A DNA stretch of 64,000 nucleotides from NCBI GenBank assembly GCA_014905635.1, contig JABVCE010000014.1:558001-622000 (forward strand). The letters run 5' to 3'. This DNA comes from Scenedesmus sp. PABB004 (taxonomy: Eukaryota). Each line of letters starts with the position of its first letter. Position 1 is the stretch's first letter. The notes under the pieces were generated by a model. It made no database searches, had not been told where the DNA came from, and saw only the letters and a program-made list of their open reading frames with translations. Made by a program: the position numbers and the translations under genes. Below, piece by piece: positions 23,197 to 55,617 of the stretch.

Positions 23197-24140
23197 CCCT
23201 CGTGCGCGTGTGCACGCGCGCCGCCGGCACGGGCGCTGCGGAAGGCGCAGCCCTGCCGGCATGTCGATGCCCTCGATGCCACTTTCACATCAAGCACTTC
23301 CACAAGCCAGCAGGGCTGGGCCTTCCTCGGCGCCGGCGGTCGTGTGCACCGCGCAGGGAGCCAGTCGACCTGCGGCGAGACGACGACCCACCAGCGCGTG
23401 GCCGCCCACCCCGCGCCGATCTGCGCGACCCCGTGCCGAGGCCCTCGACCCTGGCGACGCGCGCGCCGCCGGCGCTCGGGTGCGTCACGTCCCGCAGCTG
23501 GTCGGTCACGGCAGCTGATCGGCCGCGTCGATGACCAGCTGCGGGGGTGAAGCACCCGAGCACCGGCGGCGGCGGCGCTGAGCGCCCGCGCGCCGGCGCG
23601 CATGCTGTCGGCGAGGGCCCCTCTGTGCGGCGACCGCGCCGCGGCCCGGCGACTCGCAGACAAACGCGACGCGGACGCCCGTGTTTGTGTGCGAATCACA
23701 GGGCTGCGGCGTGGGCACCGCGAAGGCCCGCCCGATGCGGCGGCCATCGCCGCGGGGCTGGCGGCGCTGAGCTCCCGCAGCGCCGCGCCGCCGAGGCCCG
23801 TCGGCCTCCGCCGCGCGGGAGCAGGCGCCGGCGGGGCGCCGGCGGGCGCTGCAGCGCCCAGCCGACCGGCGGCAGGCGCGTCAGCTGACCGGCGGCGGTC
23901 GAGCCGCGCGGCGCCGCGTGCTGCGCTGCGCTGCGCGGCGCGCTGCAGCGCGGCCGGCGGCGGCGCGGCGCGCCGGTGCACGTGACGCGCGCCGCGCGGC
24001 GAGCTTGCCGCAGCCGCGCCTGGTCCCAAATGTTGTGCGCGACGCCCAGGTGGTGGCCCTTGTCCGGCGCCATGTTGAAGAATCCGGAAAAACTGCCGTT
24101 CTGGATTTTTCAACATAGCGCGGGAGAAGGGCCACCACCT
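23197..24140. ncRNA. Putative cluster of four pre-miRNA-like hairpins
   Basis: Long imperfect inverted repeats at about 23197-23358, 23464-23571, 23627-23721 and 24048-24140, in a region with no convincing CDS. The miRNA identity is an inference. Confidence 0.5.
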
Positions 24141-39583: not shown

Positions 39584-42500
39584 TCACGCGCGGCAGTCGA
39601 CCGTCGCGGTCGCGAGCGCGGTGGCCTGGCCGTAGAGGTCGTCCACGCTGAAGATGAAGGTGTCGCTCTTCCCCGCGGTGCAGCTGCCGCCGTTGGGCGT
39701 GTACACAAATAGGCCGCGGCTGGGCTGCCACGCGGCGACGCCAAACTCGGGCTTGCCGTCGATCGCGACCGTGAGGTTGGCGCCCGCGGGGCGCAGCGTG
39801 GGCGTGATCTCCACGCTCGCCGCGCCGGGCCTGAGCACCGCGGTCACGTCGTCCGCGCTCGGCGGCGGCGGGCAGAGCACGGTGATGGTCAGGCTGCCGT
39901 CGGCGTACGCGCCAAAGGCGTCGCTGACCATGAAGAACGCGCTGTCGGTCGCGCCGTCGATGGAGCAAAAGCCCTCGTGCGGCGTGTACACGACGCTGTA
40001 GTTGGCGCTCACGTCTGACAGGTCGCCCTCGTTGGGGGGCGCATAGAACATAAAGTCGAGCGGCGGCGCGCCGGTGACCTGCAGCTTGATCGTGCGGTTG
40101 CGCTCGCCGGCGGCGAGCGTGACCGTCTGCTCCTTTGCCGTCGGCGGGTCGGGGCAGGTGAGGAAGACGGAGCACGTCGCCTCGCCAAACTGGCCAAACG
40201 GGTCGTACACGATCCAGTTGAACGGGTCGGGCGAGTCGTCGGACGAGCAGTAGCCCTCGTACGGCGTGAACACCGTGCGCGCGATGCGCGGGTCGGCGGC
40301 GTCGAGCTCGATCGTCGTCAGGAAGCCGTTCATGGGGTCGATTGACGTCTCGATCTGGTACGGCTGCGTCCCGCGCGGGATGGAGAGCGAGATGTTGAGC
40401 GGCGCGCGCGCCGCCGCGGGCGAGCGGACGATGCTGTCCATCGGCGTCGGTGCCGCGGGGCAGAGGACCTTGACGAACACGAGGGCGAACGCGTACTGGC
40501 CGTAGAGGTCGGTGACGTCGTAGCCCCAGTTGTCGAGGTTGTCCTGCTGCGAGCAAAAGTCAAAGTCGGGCGTGTAGCTCGCGACGCCGGCGGCGCTCGG
40601 GCCGTCGACGACGCCCCAGCTCGGGTAGAGGGAGACCTCGAAGCTCAGCGGCGCGGTCGACACGACGCTCAGCACCTGCTCCTGCGCCGTCTGCGCAGGC
40701 GTCTCGAACGACTGGCTCTCCGCCGTCGGCGCGGCGGGGCAGACGACGTTGAGCGTGACCGCGCCGTCCATGAACTGGCCGTACTTGTCATACACGGTGT
40801 AATAGAAGCCGTCGTAAAAGTCAAAGAGGCTGCAGTACGTCGTCTCTGGCGTGTACGACGTGAGCCCCGCGCCGTCGATGCCGGTGATGTTGCCGTTGAG
40901 GGGCGGGCCGATGATGTCAAAGGTGAAGGGGCCGGAACCCATCACCTGGCGGGGCGGCGTGCGGCGCGGGGCGGCGCGGGGGCGGGGAGCGGGAGGGGTG
41001 AGGCGAGGCGCACAACACGGGCGCGCTGCTGCCTGCGTGCGCGCGTCAGGCTGCTGGCTGCTGGCTCCCTGCCAGCGCCGCCGCCGCCGCGCTGCCCGCC
41101 GCCGCGTGCGCCGGCCCGCGCCGCGCGCGCGGCGCACGCACCCCGAGGTCGATCGCCTGCACCGTGCCGGGCGTCATGTTGAACAGCATCTCCGGCGGGA
41201 CGACGGGCGGGTCGGGGCACTGCACCGTCACGTCGACGTAGCCCGTCGCGCTCGTGCCGTAGCGCTCGCTGACCTCAAACGCGAACGAGTCGCCGAAGCC
41301 GTCGGTGGAGCAGTAGGTGTCGTTGGGCACGTACGTGAAGGTCACGTCGAACTCGGTCGGGAAAATCGCCGCGATACTCCCGCCCTCGGGCTGCTGCGTG
41401 ATCTTGACCTTGTACGGCAGCGCGCCGCCGGCGACCATGGCGGTGATGTCGATGCTCAGCCCCGCGCCGGTCGTGACGAACTGGTCCTCCGTGTAGATCG
41501 ACTCGGGGCAGTCGACCGTGACGGCGGCCTTGGCGCTTGAGCGCCCGCCGCGCGCGTCGGTCACCGTGTACTTGAACACGTCGGCCTTGCCGGTGAGGGA
41601 GCAGAACGAGCGCGCGGGCGTGTACTTGACGCGCTGGTTGACCTGGTCGACCTCGCCCAGGCCGCCGTGCTTGGGCTCGCCGCCGGGGAGGACGGCAAAC
41701 ACAAACGGCGGGCGGTTGCCGCGCGCGTCAAAGTTGACCCACACCGGCTTGGGCGCGAGCGTGTAGGCCTCGACGTCGCGCGCGACGACCTCCTTGTAGC
41801 CCGGGTCGGGCCGCGGGCTGGGGCTGGGGCTCGGCCGCGGCGGGCGCGGGCTCGGGCTCGGGCTCGGCCCGGGGCGCGGGCTCGGCGCCGGGCTCGGCCG
41901 CGGCCCGGGGCTCGGCGGCGGCGGGCTCGGCCGCGGCGCCGGGCTCGGGTCGACCGGCGGCCAGGGCCTGACCGGGAAGTCAGGGAAGGGGAAGCCGTTG
42001 GGGTCGCCGCCTACGGGCACCTCATACGCGACTGCGCGGCAAGCAGCGACAAGCGACGGCGGCGCAGTGAGCACGCGTGCGGGCGGGCGGCGCCCGCGGC
42101 GCGGCGCGGCGAGGCGGCGCGCGGCGCGCGCGCGGACGCAGCGGCGGCGGGCGCGGCGGCTCACCGCAGGCGGTCTGGTCGTCGTTGGCGTGCGTGCCCC
42201 AGGGGCAGGGCGTGCAGGTGACCTCCAGCGCGCTGCCGCCGGGCGACACGCTGCCGGGCGGGCAGGGCATGCAGGGCACCCACATCCACTGGTTGGCGTC
42301 GCCGCCGTAGTCGAGCGCCGGCGGCGCGTCGCCGCCGGCGCTGCCGGTGCGCTGCGGCGACGGCGTGGGGCGCCCGCGCGGGCGCTGCCGGCGCCCGCCG
42401 CTCTTGGACTTCGGCGGGCTCGACGGCCCCAGCTTGCGCGCGAGCCGGCCGGGCGTGGCGGGCTTGGCCAGTGCGCCGCGCTTGCCGGCAAAGCCGGCCG

Positions 42501-48335: not shown

Positions 48336-50211
48336 TCAGATGTCCATCTCGTTGGCCATGCCGTAGTCGGGCTGCTCGTCGTCGTCGCTGTTGTACGCGT
48401 ACTTGCTGTCCTCCTCGTCCTCCTGCGCCCGCCGCCCAGGAGGAGCGCGGCAACGCAACGGCGTCAGCGGCGGCGTCGGCGCCGCCGCGCGCGCGTCTCA
48501 GCGGCGCCGCCCGCGCACCCGCCTCCCCCCCCCCCCGCCGCTGCGCCGCCGCCGCGCCGCGCCCGCCGCTGCGCCGCCGCCGCCGCGCCTTGTCCTCGCC
48601 CGCGGCGGCCTTGCTGACCGCCTTGACGCCGATGTAGAGGATGCGCTTGAGCTTCTTGTTGTAGAAGAAAAAGTTGAAGGCCCACACCGTCGCCTTCTCG
48701 CCTGCGCAGACGCGGCGTGCGTGCGTCGGGTGGCGGGCGCGGCGGGCGCTGCGGCGCGCGGGCCGTGCCCGCGCGGCGGGTCCCTCTCTGCGGCGCGGCG
48801 CACCGAACGGGTCGGTCTCGCCGTCGCTCTTGTAACTGTAGACGTCGCAGTCCTTGAGGTCGATGGCCTGCAGCGGCGGCAGCGGCGGCGGCGGCGGCGC
48901 GGGTGTGGCGTCGGCGGGCGCGGCGGCCGGGTCGCGCGGGCGGCCGCCGCTGTCGGGCGCCGCGCGCCGTGCGGTTGCGGCGCCGCGCGCCCTCGCCTCA
49001 CCTCGTCGATGGACGACCACAGCGTGTCCAGCAGCGGCGCCTCGCCAAAGCCGGGCGTGTTCTCCCAGACCTGCGCGCCGGCGACAGCGGCGGCGCCGGG
49101 TCGGCGCACGCGCCCCTTGCCGTCGACGCCCCTCATCTCTCCGCACGCCCGCGCGCGGCGGCACCGGAGCACTTGCAGCATGCAGCGCGGCACACACGCC
49201 CACACCCACACCCACACCCACACGCCCACACAGGAGCACACGCGCGCGCGCGCCTTTGAGACCTCGATGAGGTGCGTGTCGACCAGCTCCTCCGCGCGGC
49301 CGAGGCCGGCCTCCTTGCGGAAGTGGTGCGCGCGGAGCTGGCTGAAGTCGTAGTCGGGGTAGATGTGGTTCAGCGTGAGGATGAGGAAGATGAGCGTCTT
49401 GCGGCTGCGGGACGCGTCACGGGGGCGTTTGTACTCGTTATAACCGGGCGACAGGGCTCAGGGGCGGGGCGGTGGTGGCGCACCGCGCGAGCGAGGGCGC
49501 GCGAGCGAGGAAGGGCACGCACGAGGCTGCCGCCGCCACAGCTGCGGCCGCCGCGGCCGCTGCTGCTGGCGTTGGCTGCTGCTGCCGCTGCTGCTGCCGC
49601 CGCCACAGCTGTGACCGCAGCGACCGCTGCCACCGCTGCGGCCACCGCTCCACCCGCTGCCGCCGCAGCGACCGCCGCAGCTGCGCTGCCGCTGCGGGCG
49701 CGCTGCGCTGCCACGCGCGCCGCGCGCGCCGCGCACCTGGCGGCGTCGGTGAGCGGGCCGACGGGGGAGCGCGAGAGCTCCAGCGGCGAGCTGCCCGCGC
49801 TCGAGGCGACCTGCACCTCCGCGTCGAGGCTGCGGCTGAGCTTCTTGTCCAGCCCCGCCAGCTTGCCTGCGCAGGGGTGGGCGCAGCAGCGGCGTGAGGC
49901 CGCGGCGCACACCCCTCGCCAGCAGCGGCGCCGCTTGCCAGCAGCGATGCAAGCGCAGCGGCGCCCGCCGCGCCGCACGCAGCAGCGGCGCCGCGCGCGC
50001 ACAGGAGTAGGCCTCCAGGTCGCCGTAGACGATGTAGTCCCCAACGTCCACGTGGTCCAGGAAGCTGTTCAGCCTGCGATGCCACCCCGCGCGGCGCAGG
50101 CCGTGGGGCGCCGCGCTGGCGCGGGGCGAGCGGGCCACGCGTGCAGCATTGTGGTGGGCGCCCCGCCCGGGGCCCGCACCGCGAGAGCTGGCTAATGTCG
50201 AGGAACTTCAT
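48336..50211 (-). CDS. MAF1: Repressor of RNA polymerase III transcription MAF1
   Basis: MKFLD..GDLEAYSCKLAGLDKKL, SPVGPL, SRKTLIFLILTLNHIYPDYDFS, VYSY..DPFGE..VWAFNFFFYNKKLKRILY. Confidence 0.95.
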
Positions 50212-50629
50212 GATGTCGGAGCGCTTCTGAAGGGCTCAACAGCAGGTTATATCGAATGCATCGATCGCCCCGGGAAGCAGCATATTTTTGCGGGCCCCCG
50301 CGTCGCGGGGTGGCGTGCTGGCAGGCAGGCAGCGCCTGGGACGGACGTCTGAGGCGAGGGCCACGCGTGGGCGGCGCCCGTGAGCGCGGAGCGGCCTCGG
50401 CTTTCATCGCATCTTTGCGCTCGCCCTTGAAACGCATGGGCGTGCTCCCCGGCCTCGCTACCGCCGTGGGAGCGCCGGCCGGTGGTCTCAACACCGGCGG
50501 CTGGGGGGATGGGGGCTGCCGGGGCGCCCCGGGGGGCGCCCCGGCGCCGCGGGCGCGCGGCGCGCGTGCGCGGCGCTGCCACCGCCGCGCGCGCGCGCCG
50601 CCGCCGCCAACACCGACCATGGGCATCCT

Positions 50630-50853
50630 CTGATCGCCGGCCGCCTGAAACAGGCCACAGCGGCGCGAGGCATGACGGTTTGGGACCGGCCCGCAGGTCG
50701 GTGCCCCGCGAGGGGTCGCCCCCACCCGGAACGGGTGACAAGGCGAGAAACGCACGCGCACACGCCTGACCTAACCTGGCAACACAACACAACAGCAAGA
50801 GGCCTTTTATCGTCCTGCCCAGGACGGAGAGCGCAGCGCACCGCACACGCCGC
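50630..50853 (-). ncRNA. Candidate Fanzor omega-RNA scaffold (boundaries unknown)
   Basis: Lies immediately 3' of the Fanzor stop and contains at least five adjacent stem-loops. The position matches known Fanzor omega-RNAs. Confidence 0.45.
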
Positions 50854-52705
50854 TCACGCCGGGGGGTCCACCGCGGCGGCGGCCGCCTGCCGGAACGCGC
50901 CGGCGAGGCGCGCGCCGCCCGCCGTGCCGCGGCCGCCGCGCAGCAACTCGTGCAGCGTGAGCGCGCAGATGTTGCGCGCCGCGTTGTCGTCGCGCGGCGC
51001 GACGACCGTGCACCCGGGGCACTGCACCAGACCATAGATGCCCCGCAGCTTCTCCACGCGCGCCCCGCAAACAGAGCAGGTGATGCTGGTCCGGTGCTCG
51101 TCCATGAGCACCGCGGCGACGCGCCGGCGCGCGTAGTACGTGCGCAGCAGCGCCAGCAGCGCCTGCCGCGGCGGCCCCGGCCCCGAGATGCAGCCCCCCA
51201 TGCCCAGGCTGGCGTCCCCGATGCCCAGCACCACCGCGGGCAGGTCGGCGGGCAGGCGCGCGTGCTGCCGGACGCGCCCGCGCACAAAGACCCGGCCGTA
51301 TGCAGTCAACTGAATCGCCGCATGCAGCGCGCGCTGCTTCAGCCCGTGCTTCCGCAGCCGCCACGCACACTCTGCACGGCACGCAAGCAAGCTATATGCG
51401 AATTCATTGTCCAACACATGATGCACCCGGCCGTTGCGCCACGCCCCGGCGGCGGCGACGCTCGTGCCCGAGTAGGCAGGGACGCGGTTCAGGCAGGCAT
51501 GCACGCAGTCGCCGCCGCCGGGCGGGCGGCGTTCATACCGCCCCGGCCGCCCCGGCCGCCCCTGCTGCCACAGGCGGTGCCGCTCGATCCCGCGCGAGTC
51601 GCGGTGCGCGGCGGTCTTTATTCTAATGATGCGCTCCGCCTCGTAGCGGCGGCCGTGGTCGCCGCGGTGGCGCGGCGCGTTGGGGCAGCGCCGCTGCGCG
51701 ATGCGGCGGTGCGCGACGCGCGTGCAGCCCGGGCCCTGCCGCCAAGTCGCGGCGCATATCATGCGCGCCCGGCCCGGGTCGATTCCGACTATGCGCACGC
51801 CCGCGTGCACGGCCGCGGCCGCGCCGTGCAGCGCGTGCCCCGGCGGCAGGCCATCCACGCCGCGCAGCTCGCACGGGTCGAGCGGCAGCGCGTCGAGCGC
51901 CGCCTCGTCGGCCACGCCGTGCGGCGCCAGCGCGTCGCAGAGCAGCCGCCGCGCTGCCGCCGCGCCCGCGCGGTGCTCTGCCGCGCGCTGCGCCGCCTTG
52001 GCGGCGCGCGACTGCTGGCCGTGGCGCGGGGCGGGGTCGGCGGCGCCCTCGACCCGCACGCGCACGTGCAGCGCCGCCAGATCAAACGTCACAGAGCCCG
52101 CGAAGCGCGTGTTGGCGTGCAGCACGCCGCGCGCGCGCCCGGGGTGCCGGCCAAAATCAAAATATGAGTCCCAGATGGGATCATAATCCCCATGGGGCGG
52201 CGGCGGCGCGGGCGGCGGGGCGCCTCCGCCCGGCGGGGCGGTGTTGGGCGGCGGCGGCTGGCCTGCCGGCTGGCCCCCCGCGAGCGCCTTGGCCTGACGC
52301 GCGCGCAGCGCAGCATCCAGCGCCTGCATGCCCGAGGTGGACAGGTGCAGGTGCTGGGTGCCGTACTTGGGCACCGGCGCCAGCGTGAAGGCGCGCCGCT
52401 TGGGCAGCGCCACGCGCGCGGCGTGCCGCGAGCGCAGGGCGCGCAGCACCTTGCACGCGCCCGCGACCGCGATGAGCGCGTCGGGGTGCTGCCCCGCGCC
52501 GCCGGCGCGCTGCGGCGGCTGCGCGCCGCCGCTGCGGCCGCCGGGCGGCGCCGGCGCCGCCGGCGGCGGCCCCGCGCCGGCGGCGGTCGCCGCAGCCAGC
52601 ACCGCCTCGAGCGTCGCGCACACCGCGCGGCGCCAGCCGGCCGGGACATCGCGACGCAGCGCCGCGACAGCCGCCGCCGCCTCCTCGAGCGTGCGCGGCG
52701 CGGGC

Positions 52706-52738
<33 letters not shown>

Positions 52739-53859
52739 GCCGGCGGCGCCGGCGCAGCGCGACCCTGCGCGGCCGCTGTGGCCGCCAGGTAGCCGCGCGC
52801 GGCCGCCAGGTAGCCGCGCGCGGCCGCCAGGTAGCCGCGCGCGGCCGCCAGTCGGGCGCCGCAGTCGCCCAGCAGACGCGCGCCCTGGTCGCGCGCGGCG
52901 CGCGCGGCGTCCGCCGCGCGGCGGGCCGCGTCCGCGTCAGGCGCCGCCGCCGCGCCGTGCGGTCGCGCGAGCCGCCGCTGGTGCTGCACGAGCGCCGCGT
53001 CGCGCTCGTGGTGCTGCACCACGGCAGCCTGCCACTCCGCCTCCACGGCTGCGAGGTCGGCCTCCACCGTCGCGTCGCCGGCGGCGGTCAGCGCGGCCAG
53101 CGCCAGCCGCAGCCGCTCCGCGGCCGCGGCCGGCAGCGCCGCGCCCGGCCCCTGGCCCGGCGCCGCGCCCGGGCCCTGGCCCGGCGCCGCGCCCGGCGCG
53201 GCGCCTTGCCCCCGGGCGCGGAGCAGCCGCGCCTCCGCGACGGCCAGCCGGCGCCGGAGCGCCGCCGCGTGCGCGTCCTTGCGCTGCAGGCGGCGCAGCC
53301 GGTTGCGCGCGTGGTCGGGCGGGCCCGTCATACCTCCCTGGACCGCAGCGCGGCTGGCGACCTCCCGCTGCAGGTCCTTGAGGGGTTCCTTGCGCAGACG
53401 CACGGCCGCCTCGCTGGCATCCACGGCGGCGCGCAGGCGCTGCACCGCCGCCTCGAGCTTGCCCAGCTCGCGCGCCCGCTGCAGCTCGCGCAGGCGCGGC
53501 TCCTGGGCGCTGGCGTCCAGCAGCTTGGGGGGCGCCGGCGGACGCTGGCCGCGGCTGCGGCTGCTGCTGCTGCCGCTGCCGCTGCCGCTGCGCCCGCTGC
53601 TGCCGTCCAGCGCCTCTGCCAGCGACTCGACGGCCGCCGCGAGCGCGCCGGCCGACGCGGGCTCCGGGGCCGCCCCGAGCGACGCGGCGCGGCGCAGCAT
53701 CGCCTCCAGCGCCGGCCGCGCCGCCGCGCCCTGCTGGGCTGCCAGCGAGTCCGCGAGCCGCGGCGCGCAGGCAGCAAACATGTGCTGTTGGCCGAGCATG
53801 ACGACAAAGTCGCGCGCGACGCGGCGCGACTTTGTCGTCATGCTCGGCCAACAGCACAT
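50854..53859 (-). CDS. Fanzor (eukaryotic TnpB-family, Fanzor1-like) RNA-guided endonuclease, intronless; start codon uncertain
   Basis: RuvC-I IVGIDPG, RuvC-II LMDEHRTS, Zn finger CSVC..CPGC, RuvC-III RDDNAARNI. Upstream FTLAPVP..LHLS, WDSYF and RFAGSVTFD resemble Fanzor1 blocks. Confidence 0.88.
52780..52851 (-). repeat. 21-nt tandem repeat x3.4 inside the Fanzor ORF (AAARGYL)
   Basis: Exact copies of ggccgccaggtagccgcgcgc start at 52780, 52801 and 52822. Confidence 0.95.
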
Positions 53860-53860
53860 G
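53779..53860. repeat. Perfect 37-bp inverted repeat with 8-nt spacer
   Basis: 53779-53815 (catgtgctgttggccgagcatgacgacaaagtcgcgc) is the exact reverse complement of 53824-53860. Confidence 0.97.
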
Positions 53861-54126
53861 CGCCATGGCGTCGGCGTCGCCCTCCCGGTACGCCAGGCCC
53901 TCGAGCCCTCGAGCTGCCGGGCCAGGCTCCCGCCCTGCTGGCTCGAGCTGCTCCGAGCGGGCCCTCGAGCTCAATCGGGCGTCAGCGCGTTCCAGCCCGC
54001 CCAGCGACGGCAGGCGCTCGCGGCGGCGGCGCGCGGCACACTGCGCAGCGCGCGCCGGCACACGTGAGCGCGCGGGCGCTCTGTTGTGCGTCCTCCTGCG
54101 CGGCCTCCCACCGCCCCGGCAGCCGC

Positions 54127-55617
54127 TCACTGGCGGCCGGCCGCCGCCTCGGCCGCCTGCAGCGCCGGCGCCGCCGCGGCCTGCGCGGGGAGGCGAAGCG
54201 CGCAGACCGACGTGCGATACCGCCCCGTGCTCACGCTGCCCTCGTCCGCGGCGCTCGACAGCCGCGTGCTGTAGGCGACGTAGACCAGCGTAGACCGGCT
54301 GGGGTCGTAGAGCCGCCGCACGCGCAGCGTCTGCGCGGCGCGGCGCGGCGCGCGGTTTGCGGGGCTCGGCCAGGCGCGCTCCTCCAGGCTGCAGCCCAGC
54401 GCCCCCTCTCCGCGCGTGACCCCCCTCTGCACGTGCCGCACCTTGTCCTTGAAGATGGAGAGGCCCTTCTTCTCGCTGAACACCTCCTTGCCTGCGGCCC
54501 GGGGCGGGAGAAGCGAGCAGCATCGCCGGGTTGGTGGGCTGCCGCCTCGACCACCCCACGCGCCAACAGCAGCCGGCCCGCCGTGCCGCGCGGCGCCGCG
54601 CGCACCCTCGACGCCGCCGAGGCCGGCGGGGTTGGTCACGGCGGCGTCGGGCGCGATCGAACACGTGAGGCTCGCCTGGCTCGGCTCGGCGAAGAAGTCC
54701 TGCCGCGCGCGCGGGCGGGCCGGCGGGCGGGCCGCGCGGCGGGGACGCGGGCGGGCGGGCGGCGTGAGCGCGCGCGGCCCTGCCGCGATCGTACGCCGCC
54801 CGAGCGGCGGGGCGGCCACGCGTGCGTCTAGACTCAGCGTGCCGGCGCACACACCTTCTGAAGCTTGTCTACGAGGCTCCTCTTGAAGTCACTGAAATAG
54901 ATCGTCACGCCCGGCACTGCGCGGCGGGCGGCACGGCGGGCGCGGGCGTCGGCGGGGCGCGTCCTGCGAGCGCGGCGACGTCGTGCAGGCGCGGCGCCGT
55001 GTTGCGGGCGCGGCGCCGTCCTGCGAGCGCGCACCCTCGGGGTCGTCCAGGGCGTTGACCTCAACCGAGTCTTTGAACAGGAAGCCACTTGCCTTGCGGG
55101 CGTTCAGGGGCGCGCGGCGGCGCATCCATGCGAGCACAGGGCGCGGGCGGTGCGGGTCGGGTCGTGGCCACCGACGGGCGGGGCGGCGCGCGGGCAGCAG
55201 CAGGGCGCGGGCGCGGCGGGCGGCACCTGAAACTCGCCGATGCGCTCGCGTGCCGCCTGCGCGCTGCCTGCGCGCAGCAGCGAGGGCGGCGGCGGCGGCG
55301 GCAGGCGCCGCGCGTTGGGGGCGGGCCGCCGCGCGGGCGGGACGCCGCTGGCAGGCACGGCGGCGCGTGCGCGCGCGCGCGGGGCGGCCGCGGCGCCGCG
55401 CACCCGGCGCGGCCAGCAGCGCCGCCGCGGCGAGCGCGGCGCCCGCCGCGCGCCAGTCTGCGCCGCCGCGCTGCGCCGCCGCGGAGACGCCACGCTGCCG
55501 CCGCTGGGTGGCGGCTGCTGCTCCCTGGCGACCGCTCGCAGTGGCGGCGGCGAAGGGCCGGCGCGCGCGGCTGGCAGCGGCACCGCCGGACAGCGAGGCG
55601 CGGGCGGCGGTCTGCAT
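54127..55617 (-). CDS. CreA-family protein, probably plastid/thylakoid-targeted
   Basis: ASGFLFKDSVEVNALDDPEVPGVTIYFS, EPSQASLTC, EVFSEKKGLSIFKDKTLRVRRLYDPSRSTLVYVAYS. Transit-like N-terminus. Confidence 0.85.

Follow-up and report, generated by a model that had tools for sequence, protein, structure and literature searches.

A perfect 37-bp palindrome over the start region of a Fanzor reading frame in Scenedesmus sp. PABB004 and its possible origin as a fold-back copy of the gene's own 5' end

The DNA analyzed here is a 64-kb stretch of contig JABVCE010000014.1 from Scenedesmus sp. PABB004 (hereafter the window), which contains no N, is about 80% G+C throughout, and has the character of an intron-rich eukaryotic genome, with split genes that include a Maf1-like gene, a nucleotidyl-transferase gene, and an FAD oxidoreductase gene. 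On its minus strand lies an uninterrupted open reading frame (ORF) for a Fanzor nuclease, and the first 27 of its 1001 codons are spanned by a palindrome, with the ORF beginning inside the right arm. A first-pass annotation of the sequence had described an exact 37-bp inverted repeat with an 8-nt loop at this place, and a repeat search of the window returned the same coordinates and geometry: the arms at 53779-53815 and 53824-53860 are complementary at 37 of 37 positions, and the loop at 53816-53823 is asymmetric and not self-complementary. The features of the start region are as follows, where the left arm is the one downstream on the gene strand.

50854..53859, minus strand: Fanzor ORF, 1001 codons, uninterrupted, with an N-terminal extension of about 430 amino acids and the TnpB/Fanzor core at the C-terminal side
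53779..53815, minus strand: downstream (left) arm, residues 16-27 of the ORF, with ATGs M21 (53799) and M27 (53781); probable source of the copy
53816..53823, no strand: loop of 8 nt, which with the inner 7 bp of the arms may have formed a seed for fold-back priming
53824..53860, minus strand: upstream (right) arm, 37/37 complementary, with ATGs M1 (53859) and M7 (53841); putative reverse-complement copy
53864..53866, minus strand: ATG in good context (gccATGgcg) outside the stem, in the +1 frame relative to the ORF

The palindrome is far beyond what chance would produce in this DNA. A hairpin scan in which every base pair was weighted by composition, with scores in bits and five block-shuffles as controls, gave it 78 bits. 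Among hairpins with spacers of at most 40 nt, only the palindrome and a second structure at 24048-24140 (57 bits) reached 32 bits or more, and no hairpin of 25 bits or more was found in the five shuffles at the same spacer limit. When spacers of up to 200 nt were admitted at a threshold of 20 bits, the window gave 34 hits compared to 1-9 in each of the five shuffles, for which the top score was 25.3. The arm sequence matches only its own two sites in the window at up to three mismatches, and none of 100 shuffles matched. As RNA, the 82-nt palindrome folds at -78.4 kcal/mol (z = -16, with 0 of 200 shuffles equally stable), and the corresponding value for DNA is -54.4 kcal/mol. GC content is 59% in the arms, amid DNA of 80% GC, and the AT-richer tract extends beyond the left arm into the coding sequence. 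Within the center of the palindrome lies a smaller perfect palindrome of 12 nt at 53809-53820, and one 7-mer occurs both at 53814-53820 and at 53824-53830, that is, also 10 nt earlier.

The nuclease encoded downstream of this structure looks intact as judged from its sequence, because the GIDPG, DEHRTS, and RDDNAARNI motifs, which we take to represent RuvC I-III, and the zinc-finger cysteines are conserved. The C-terminal TNB zinc finger that characterizes Fanzor and TnpB proteins is present as a match to Pfam PF07282 (Cas12f1-like TNB) at residues 908-964 (E 1.4e-9, 38.4 bits against a cut-off of 26.3), and the best solved structure for the ORF is 9b0l, 'TnpB-like protein L79' (E 0.008). An exhaustive search of residues 480-1001 against 1.84 billion representative proteins returned 25 proteins at E <=0.001, all of them distant; the closest (E 8e-19, 37% identity) is the sole one at or below 1e-10. 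These relatives are Ala/Gln-rich, and four of the five that were scanned carry PF07282 at E <=0.01, with Pfam's own cut-off reached by two, while the nearest Atlas cluster is eukaryotic, consists mostly of Chlorophyta, and carries PF07282. In an alignment with relatives, all six sequences share the DE of DEHRTS and the RD..N of RDDNAARNI without variation, GIDPG is aligned to G[VI]DPG or DPG in three of the four relatives that cover the site, and the zinc-finger cysteines are also conserved.

The N-terminal extension (52560-53860, residues 1-430) is Ala/Gln-rich and coiled-coil-like, with a run of ten Gln, a unit AARGYL present about three times (52765-52872), and a GQGPGAAP repeat. The extension is taken to be coding because the periodicity of G+C across codon positions (GC1 high, GC2 low, GC3 about 0.9-1.0 for the first, second, and third positions) continues through it, holding in the frame of the ORF from about 53785 to 50860, and the region 53860-54130 gives no clear signal by the same measure. 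None of the 25 relatives has a counterpart to the N-terminal 430 or so residues and, since none covers this part, they are uninformative about the palindrome. Protein word searches with the whole ORF, with residues 480-1001, and with the first 65 residues against longer proteins returned no match, by a method that is weak for low-complexity sequence. The ORF has no introns, whereas the neighboring genes are split into many small exons. Behind its stop, the region 50200-50850 is less GC-rich and non-coding and holds several stable hairpins; this is where a guide (omega) RNA would be expected, and no Rfam family matched anywhere in the window.

The arms of the palindrome contain four in-frame ATGs, namely M1 (53859), M7 (53841), M21 (53799), and M27 (53781), and the loop contains none; the first-pass annotation was thus right that in-frame ATGs lie within the palindrome, but its count of three has to be corrected to four according to the translation of the ORF. 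Its further statement that the ATG in the best context stands just outside the stem and one base out of frame is confirmed from the sequence: this ATG (53866-53864, gccATGgcg) lies 7 nt upstream of M1 in the +1 frame. The peptide that it predicted upon deletion of one base likewise agrees with both frames as read. Deleting exactly the 82 nt of the palindrome also brings ATG 53866 into frame (82 = 3x27+1), which is weak evidence, as such an outcome has a prior of one in three. Residues 1-20 of the protein as predicted are unlikely to be ancestral, and the true start is uncertain among 53866, 53799, and 53781.

Related sequences from metagenomes cover part of the palindrome. Seven metagenome runs share words with the window, each at a fraction of 0.07-0.17 of the words sampled, no RNA run was among those listed, and contigs from four of the seven were compared with it. 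Freshwater and sludge contigs, all short, are about 95-99% identical to the Fanzor gene, and one of them, a 159-nt contig from freshwater run X1 at a depth of 3.4, spans 53664-53822 and thus includes the whole left arm and seven of the eight bases of the loop. Its only difference from the left arm, 53788 T>C, is a synonymous change of CAA to CAG in the frame of the ORF. Run X1 looks independent, but it may be related to the sample behind the window. Codon position 3 accounts for 15 of the 27 differences listed within the ORF (P = 0.014) and, when run X1 is taken by itself, for 6 of 7; 15 more differences exist beyond those 27. One contig carries two indels inside the ORF, of 15 and 6 nt, each a multiple of three. 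Because the differences concentrate at codon position 3 and the indels preserve the frame, the Fanzor ORF seems to be under purifying selection in related populations. Behind the Fanzor stop, the interval 50596-50865 is covered by contigs of three runs with few substitutions and small indels. A scan for related loci returned two weak ones among the metagenome contigs and none among viral contigs. One of the two was dropped, as a bacterial-looking contig had been matched via a chance peptide word, and the other is a weak match of 44 residues on a contig of 1.2 kb.

Considering these data, we propose that the palindrome is a recent copy of the gene's own 5' end, made in a single fold-back step by template switching or snap-back synthesis, and we judge the chances that this account is correct to be evenly balanced. 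The first-pass annotation had offered three readings of the structure, namely that it is the mobile element's terminal hairpin, that it acts as a brake on translation or a substrate of Dicer, or that it is a recent fold-back duplication by which the element was truncated. Truncation aside, it is the last of these that fits best: the arms are identical (37/37), the spacer is short and asymmetric (8 nt), the left arm runs on into the coding frame, and there is no partner repeat. The event appears local within the 64-kb window, in which neither a target-site duplication nor dispersed copies of the arm were found; no sequence lacking the right arm was found either.

We infer a course of events that would have begun either with a switch of template in replication or with snap-back synthesis in break repair. 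The growing DNA end would have folded back to anneal with its own strand, or would have annealed with the sister strand, near 53809-53830. It would then have copied some 30-37 nt from the 5' end of the Fanzor frame in reverse complement and returned to its template. The source would be the left arm at 53779-53815, and the copy would be the right arm at 53824-53860, now situated between the gene and the 3' end of a CreA-like gene upstream. The seed could have been the innermost 7 bp of the stem, on either side of the 8-nt loop, provided that they existed before the event. The copy would have introduced the two in-frame ATGs M1 and M7 by chance and left ATG 53866 one base out of frame. The left arm is taken as the source because it is collinear with the coding sequence, because the AT-richer tract continues from it, because a metagenome contig covers it, and because the single difference of that contig is synonymous.

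An event of this type would be a known kind of mutation in a new instance and at an interesting position. Mönttinen and colleagues (PMC10710096) describe how template switching creates perfect stems in one event, citing cases of 28 and up to 83 bases and using new stems of 30-55 bases as a criterion. The palindrome resembles the template-switch events of that report and of PMC5453318 in its perfect arms, its short spacer, a stem of 37 that lies within their range, one arm that runs on into its flank, and the lack of a target-site duplication or other copy. It differs in that the event is deduced without an outgroup and in its setting, which is the start of a protein gene in 80% GC DNA, while the published events lie in primate sequence free of constraint. 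A second known route is end joining by polymerase theta with snap-back synthesis, which is templated in cis (PMC4912351, PMC5728401). It would likewise leave an inverted templated insertion beside its template, primed by a few paired bases around a small loop, and a pairing of 7 bp around an 8-nt loop is available here. There is no identifiable break or deletion scar at the present site. Insertions made by polymerase theta in this way are usually shorter. If our account is right, the locus would be a clean natural case of one copying slip that built a perfect and very stable hairpin on the start of a gene.

Several points weigh against a recent fold-back copy. Neither an ancestral nor a sister sequence came out of searches of proteins, metagenome contigs, and viral contigs, and the direction of copying proposed here, the sequence replaced, and the points of switching are putative. 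The reverse complement of the coding frame also looks coding at this composition, so the codon argument depends on the flanks and on the single synonymous change. Read in frame with ATG 53866, about 15 codons just upstream of the right arm are codon-like, with a score of 10.3 that only reaches the threshold, and the choice of the left arm is not secure, since these codons would also permit the right arm to be the original. Perfect identity can persist through repeated palindrome correction or through selection as well, so that a young age does not necessarily follow from it. An equal distance of 16 nt between loop and ATG in this palindrome and in the one at 24 kb, described below, is not something that a random copying accident would predict. 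Finally, none of the metagenome contigs listed, beyond which there were 763 more pieces, bridges 53779-53860, and the right arm is vouched for by the assembly of the window alone.

Two other modes of origin were considered and set aside. The opening of a hairpin left by an excised element, as in P-nucleotide footprints, yields arms that abut directly, which does not agree with the asymmetric loop of 8 nt seen here. The other, a head-to-head second copy that was later deleted, is less economical than a single fold-back event.

The same gap in contig coverage raises the question of whether the right arm exists in the genome at all. The palindrome could be an inverted chimera from the library or a fold-back made by the assembler at a small native palindrome. 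Inverted chimeras arising from amplification are a known artefact and form at sites such as the perfect 12-nt palindrome at 53809-53820, and the sole contig among those listed that enters the structure ends within the loop at 53822, at a depth of only 3.4. Nevertheless, we consider such an artefact unlikely, as the palindrome stands in the middle of a 64-kb stretch without N, the left arm and seven loop bases recur in a metagenome contig of another run, and the similar hairpin at 24 kb has five mismatches where an assembler fold-back would give none. In addition, arms of 37 nt with an asymmetric 8-nt loop fit no k-mer break point that can be derived for k = 31. The contig end at 53822 likewise fits no derivable break point of a k = 31 graph and is given no weight. 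Were the palindrome an artefact after all, a local assembly error would have been flagged in a gene of biotechnological interest.

The Fanzor ORF lies between two host genes on its own strand.

48999..50211, minus strand: Maf1-like downstream host gene, several exons (PF09174, E 1.4e-15), with an ATG at 50211
54127..54489, minus strand: CreA-like upstream host gene, last exon and stop (PF05981, E 1.4e-7)

The CreA-like stop at 54127 lies 267 nt upstream of the palindrome and, because this stop and the Maf1-like ATG at 50211 bound the interval, any mobile element around the Fanzor ORF could measure no more than about 3.9 kb; no element boundaries were recognized within this limit. Between the two host genes, the coding-like segments were the Fanzor ORF and its mirror frames only, with no search aimed at a Y1 transposase. 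The palindrome could then be a structural end, whether the 5' hairpin of a Helitron2-type Fanzor carrier, the junction of two terminal inverted repeats (TIRs), or a fold-back element of 82 bp (or of 74 bp plus a CATG duplication) inserted between codons 2 and 3. We regard this as improbable, although it has a close precedent in green algae. The Fanzor1 elements CRe-1, 2, and 3 of Chlamydomonas are described by Bao and Jurka (2013, PMC3627910) as non-autonomous Helitron2 elements that have hairpins at both ends, are often 5'-truncated, and insert after T-rich tetranucleotides, with a short 5' hairpin from an 8-15-bp asymmetric terminal inverted repeat (ATIR). The present locus resembles them in its Fanzor1-type gene, its green-alga-like genome, and its hairpin on the 5' side, and the ORF on whose 5' edge the palindrome sits is the only long one without introns and has a host gene on either side. 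The return of ATG 53866 to the frame upon exact removal of 82 nt and the low GC content of the arms relative to their surroundings would also suit an inserted element.

The details fit this precedent less well. The stem is more than twice as long as the repeats of CRe-1, 2, and 3, and the genes of those elements have 5-10 exons, whereas the ORF here has none of its coding sequence interrupted. The ATIRs of Helitron2 5' hairpins recur upstream of the 3' hairpin, and no word of 9 nt or more from the specific part of the arm was found in 50150-50900. More broadly, this AT-richer specific part had no match of at least 9 nt in 48.5-53.7 or 53.9-56.5 kb except a 10-mer at 54562, with the remaining matches being GC-rich words derived from the loop only. 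A T-rich tetranucleotide of the Helitron2 kind does not precede the palindrome, as the bases before it on the gene strand are G/C-rich and end in ATGGCG, and no direct repeat above chance flanks the gene that could be read as a target-site duplication. The terminal CATG can be read as a 4-bp duplication but, being self-complementary, is indistinguishable from the stem. Neither a partner inverted repeat, nor a target-site duplication, nor multiple copies were found in the window, as would be expected of a TIR transposon or of a fold-back miniature inverted-repeat transposable element, and a degenerate pattern of the arm peptide had no matches in the metagenome contigs or in the viral contigs. 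The frame restored by removing 82 nt carries the one-in-three prior given above, and the AT-richer tract does not stop at the left arm but continues into the coding sequence. The hairpins of IS200/IS605 elements are subterminal, short, and imperfect, occur at both ends, and accompany a Y1 TnpA, compared to which the stem here is perfect and much longer. The view in the first-pass annotation that the structure might be a terminal hairpin is thus not upheld, given a stem that lies inside the reading frame and a 3' region with no arm match that could serve as a Helitron2 3'-ATIR or as a TIR. For annotation, this means that the palindrome is unsuitable as a marker of a transposon boundary.

Whatever its origin, the palindrome may influence the expression of the nuclease. 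A transcript that starts upstream of 53860 would carry a perfect hairpin of 37 bp and -78 kcal/mol over the start region, and such an RNA would be expected to halt ribosomes as they scan or to become a substrate of a Dicer-like enzyme. Scanning is arrested by hairpins whose stability exceeds about -50 kcal/mol. If transcription were instead to start inside or after the stem, the hairpin would have no influence, and translation could begin at M21 or M27. From the folding model, the translational brake or Dicer substrate put forward in the first-pass annotation is physically plausible. It would follow from a fold-back copy that a single step may switch off translation or create a Dicer substrate, a possible route to the taming of Fanzor nucleases.

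A stronger version of this idea is that the hairpin has been kept by selection as a cis-acting brake on a potentially harmful nuclease, with small RNAs that could silence other copies in the manner of a miniature 'Mu killer'. The 37 perfect pairs at -78.4 kcal/mol cover all four of the 5'-most in-frame ATGs, the stem geometry is that of a Dicer precursor, and the apparent purifying selection on the ORF implies that the host or the element would have reason to control the nuclease. There are also precedents in the literature. In Chlamydomonas, mRNAs with hairpins in exons or untranslated regions (UTRs) are direct targets of DCL3, with at least 43 inferred (PMC4817775), and MuDR is silenced by Mu killer, a transposase gene part of which is duplicated in inverted orientation (PMC3440606). 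The palindrome has in common with these that the 5' part of a transposon gene recurs as an inverted copy, that double-stranded RNA could form from it, and that an exon or UTR hairpin can make the mRNA a Dicer target, but the hairpin RNA of Mu killer measures about 4 kb and the stem here 37 bp. No sign of conservation of the stem or of compensatory change was seen, and the older hairpin at 24 kb has decayed through uncompensated mismatches, which argues against the maintenance of such hairpins. We therefore doubt that selection preserved the palindrome for this purpose and hold this version to be unlikely.

That older hairpin is the only other structure in the window of comparable strength.

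24048..24140, minus strand: older hairpin, arms at 24048-24089 and 24099-24140 of 42 nt with 37 matches and a 9-nt loop, 57 bits

The first-pass annotation had likened the Fanzor palindrome to older hairpins at 23-24 kb. This likeness stands for 24048-24140, which is real and has the same geometry, but the hairpins at 23.2-23.7 kb are not solid, as they score 21-28 bits compared to a best shuffle score of 25. These weaker inverted repeats (23240-23694, spacers 17-58 nt) form a group immediately downstream of the 24-kb hairpin and may be due to chance. The downstream, gene-side arm of the 24-kb hairpin contains an ATG at 24073 (caacATGgcg), which is followed by a short coding-like stretch. Three of the mismatches are transitions, and at these the bases are G/C on the gene side and A/T in the upstream arm, the pattern expected if an inverted copy decays while its source is constrained. 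The imperfection of this hairpin also suggests that the genome makes such structures naturally, as an assembler would not make an imperfect one. Such hairpins thus appear to erode rather than to be maintained.

The two strong hairpins share their position relative to a start codon. In each, the start of the gene-side arm precedes an ATG by exactly 16 nt (53815 and 53799; 24089 and 24073), and the site is the spacer that follows a same-strand gene upstream. Each hairpin contains the ATG itself, and neither shows a connection to a Fanzor 3' end. This raises the possibility that they mark a process centered on the 5' end of the transcript or on the start of transcription, such as the repair of a promoter-proximal break, or conversion of the locus after the end of a cDNA had snapped back. 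The shared distance from loop to ATG, the location of both outliers behind a same-strand gene, the absence of introns from the Fanzor ORF, and the transcription-linked quasi-palindrome mutation described for yeast (PMC3820800) are consistent with it. However, there are only two cases, noticed post hoc, and with two ATGs in one arm an equal offset would arise by chance in roughly 5% of cases by our rough estimate. The gene at 24 kb, moreover, seemingly has a short first exon followed by non-coding sequence, unlike a cDNA copy. We consider a process of this kind highly improbable. On a more speculative note, hairpins at a fixed distance from start codons may recur in this GC-rich alga, either as a footprint of 5'-end copying or as a cis-silencing device, in which case the Fanzor hairpin would be a miniature 'Mu killer' that keeps the nuclease off and feeds small RNAs against its relatives; we would be surprised if this were borne out, and offer it as a long shot.

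Two further observations were made in the course of the analysis. The same 9-mer occurs across the CreA-like stop (54122-54130) and across the Fanzor stop (50849-57), but about 12 shared 9-mers are expected by chance between the two regions by our estimate, and it is probably meaningless. Farther away on the minus strand, the region 39596-41807 contains large exons of lower G+C (GC1 about 0.6) that encode repeated bacterial-Ig-like (Big_9) domains, and its composition is unlike that of the rest of the window.

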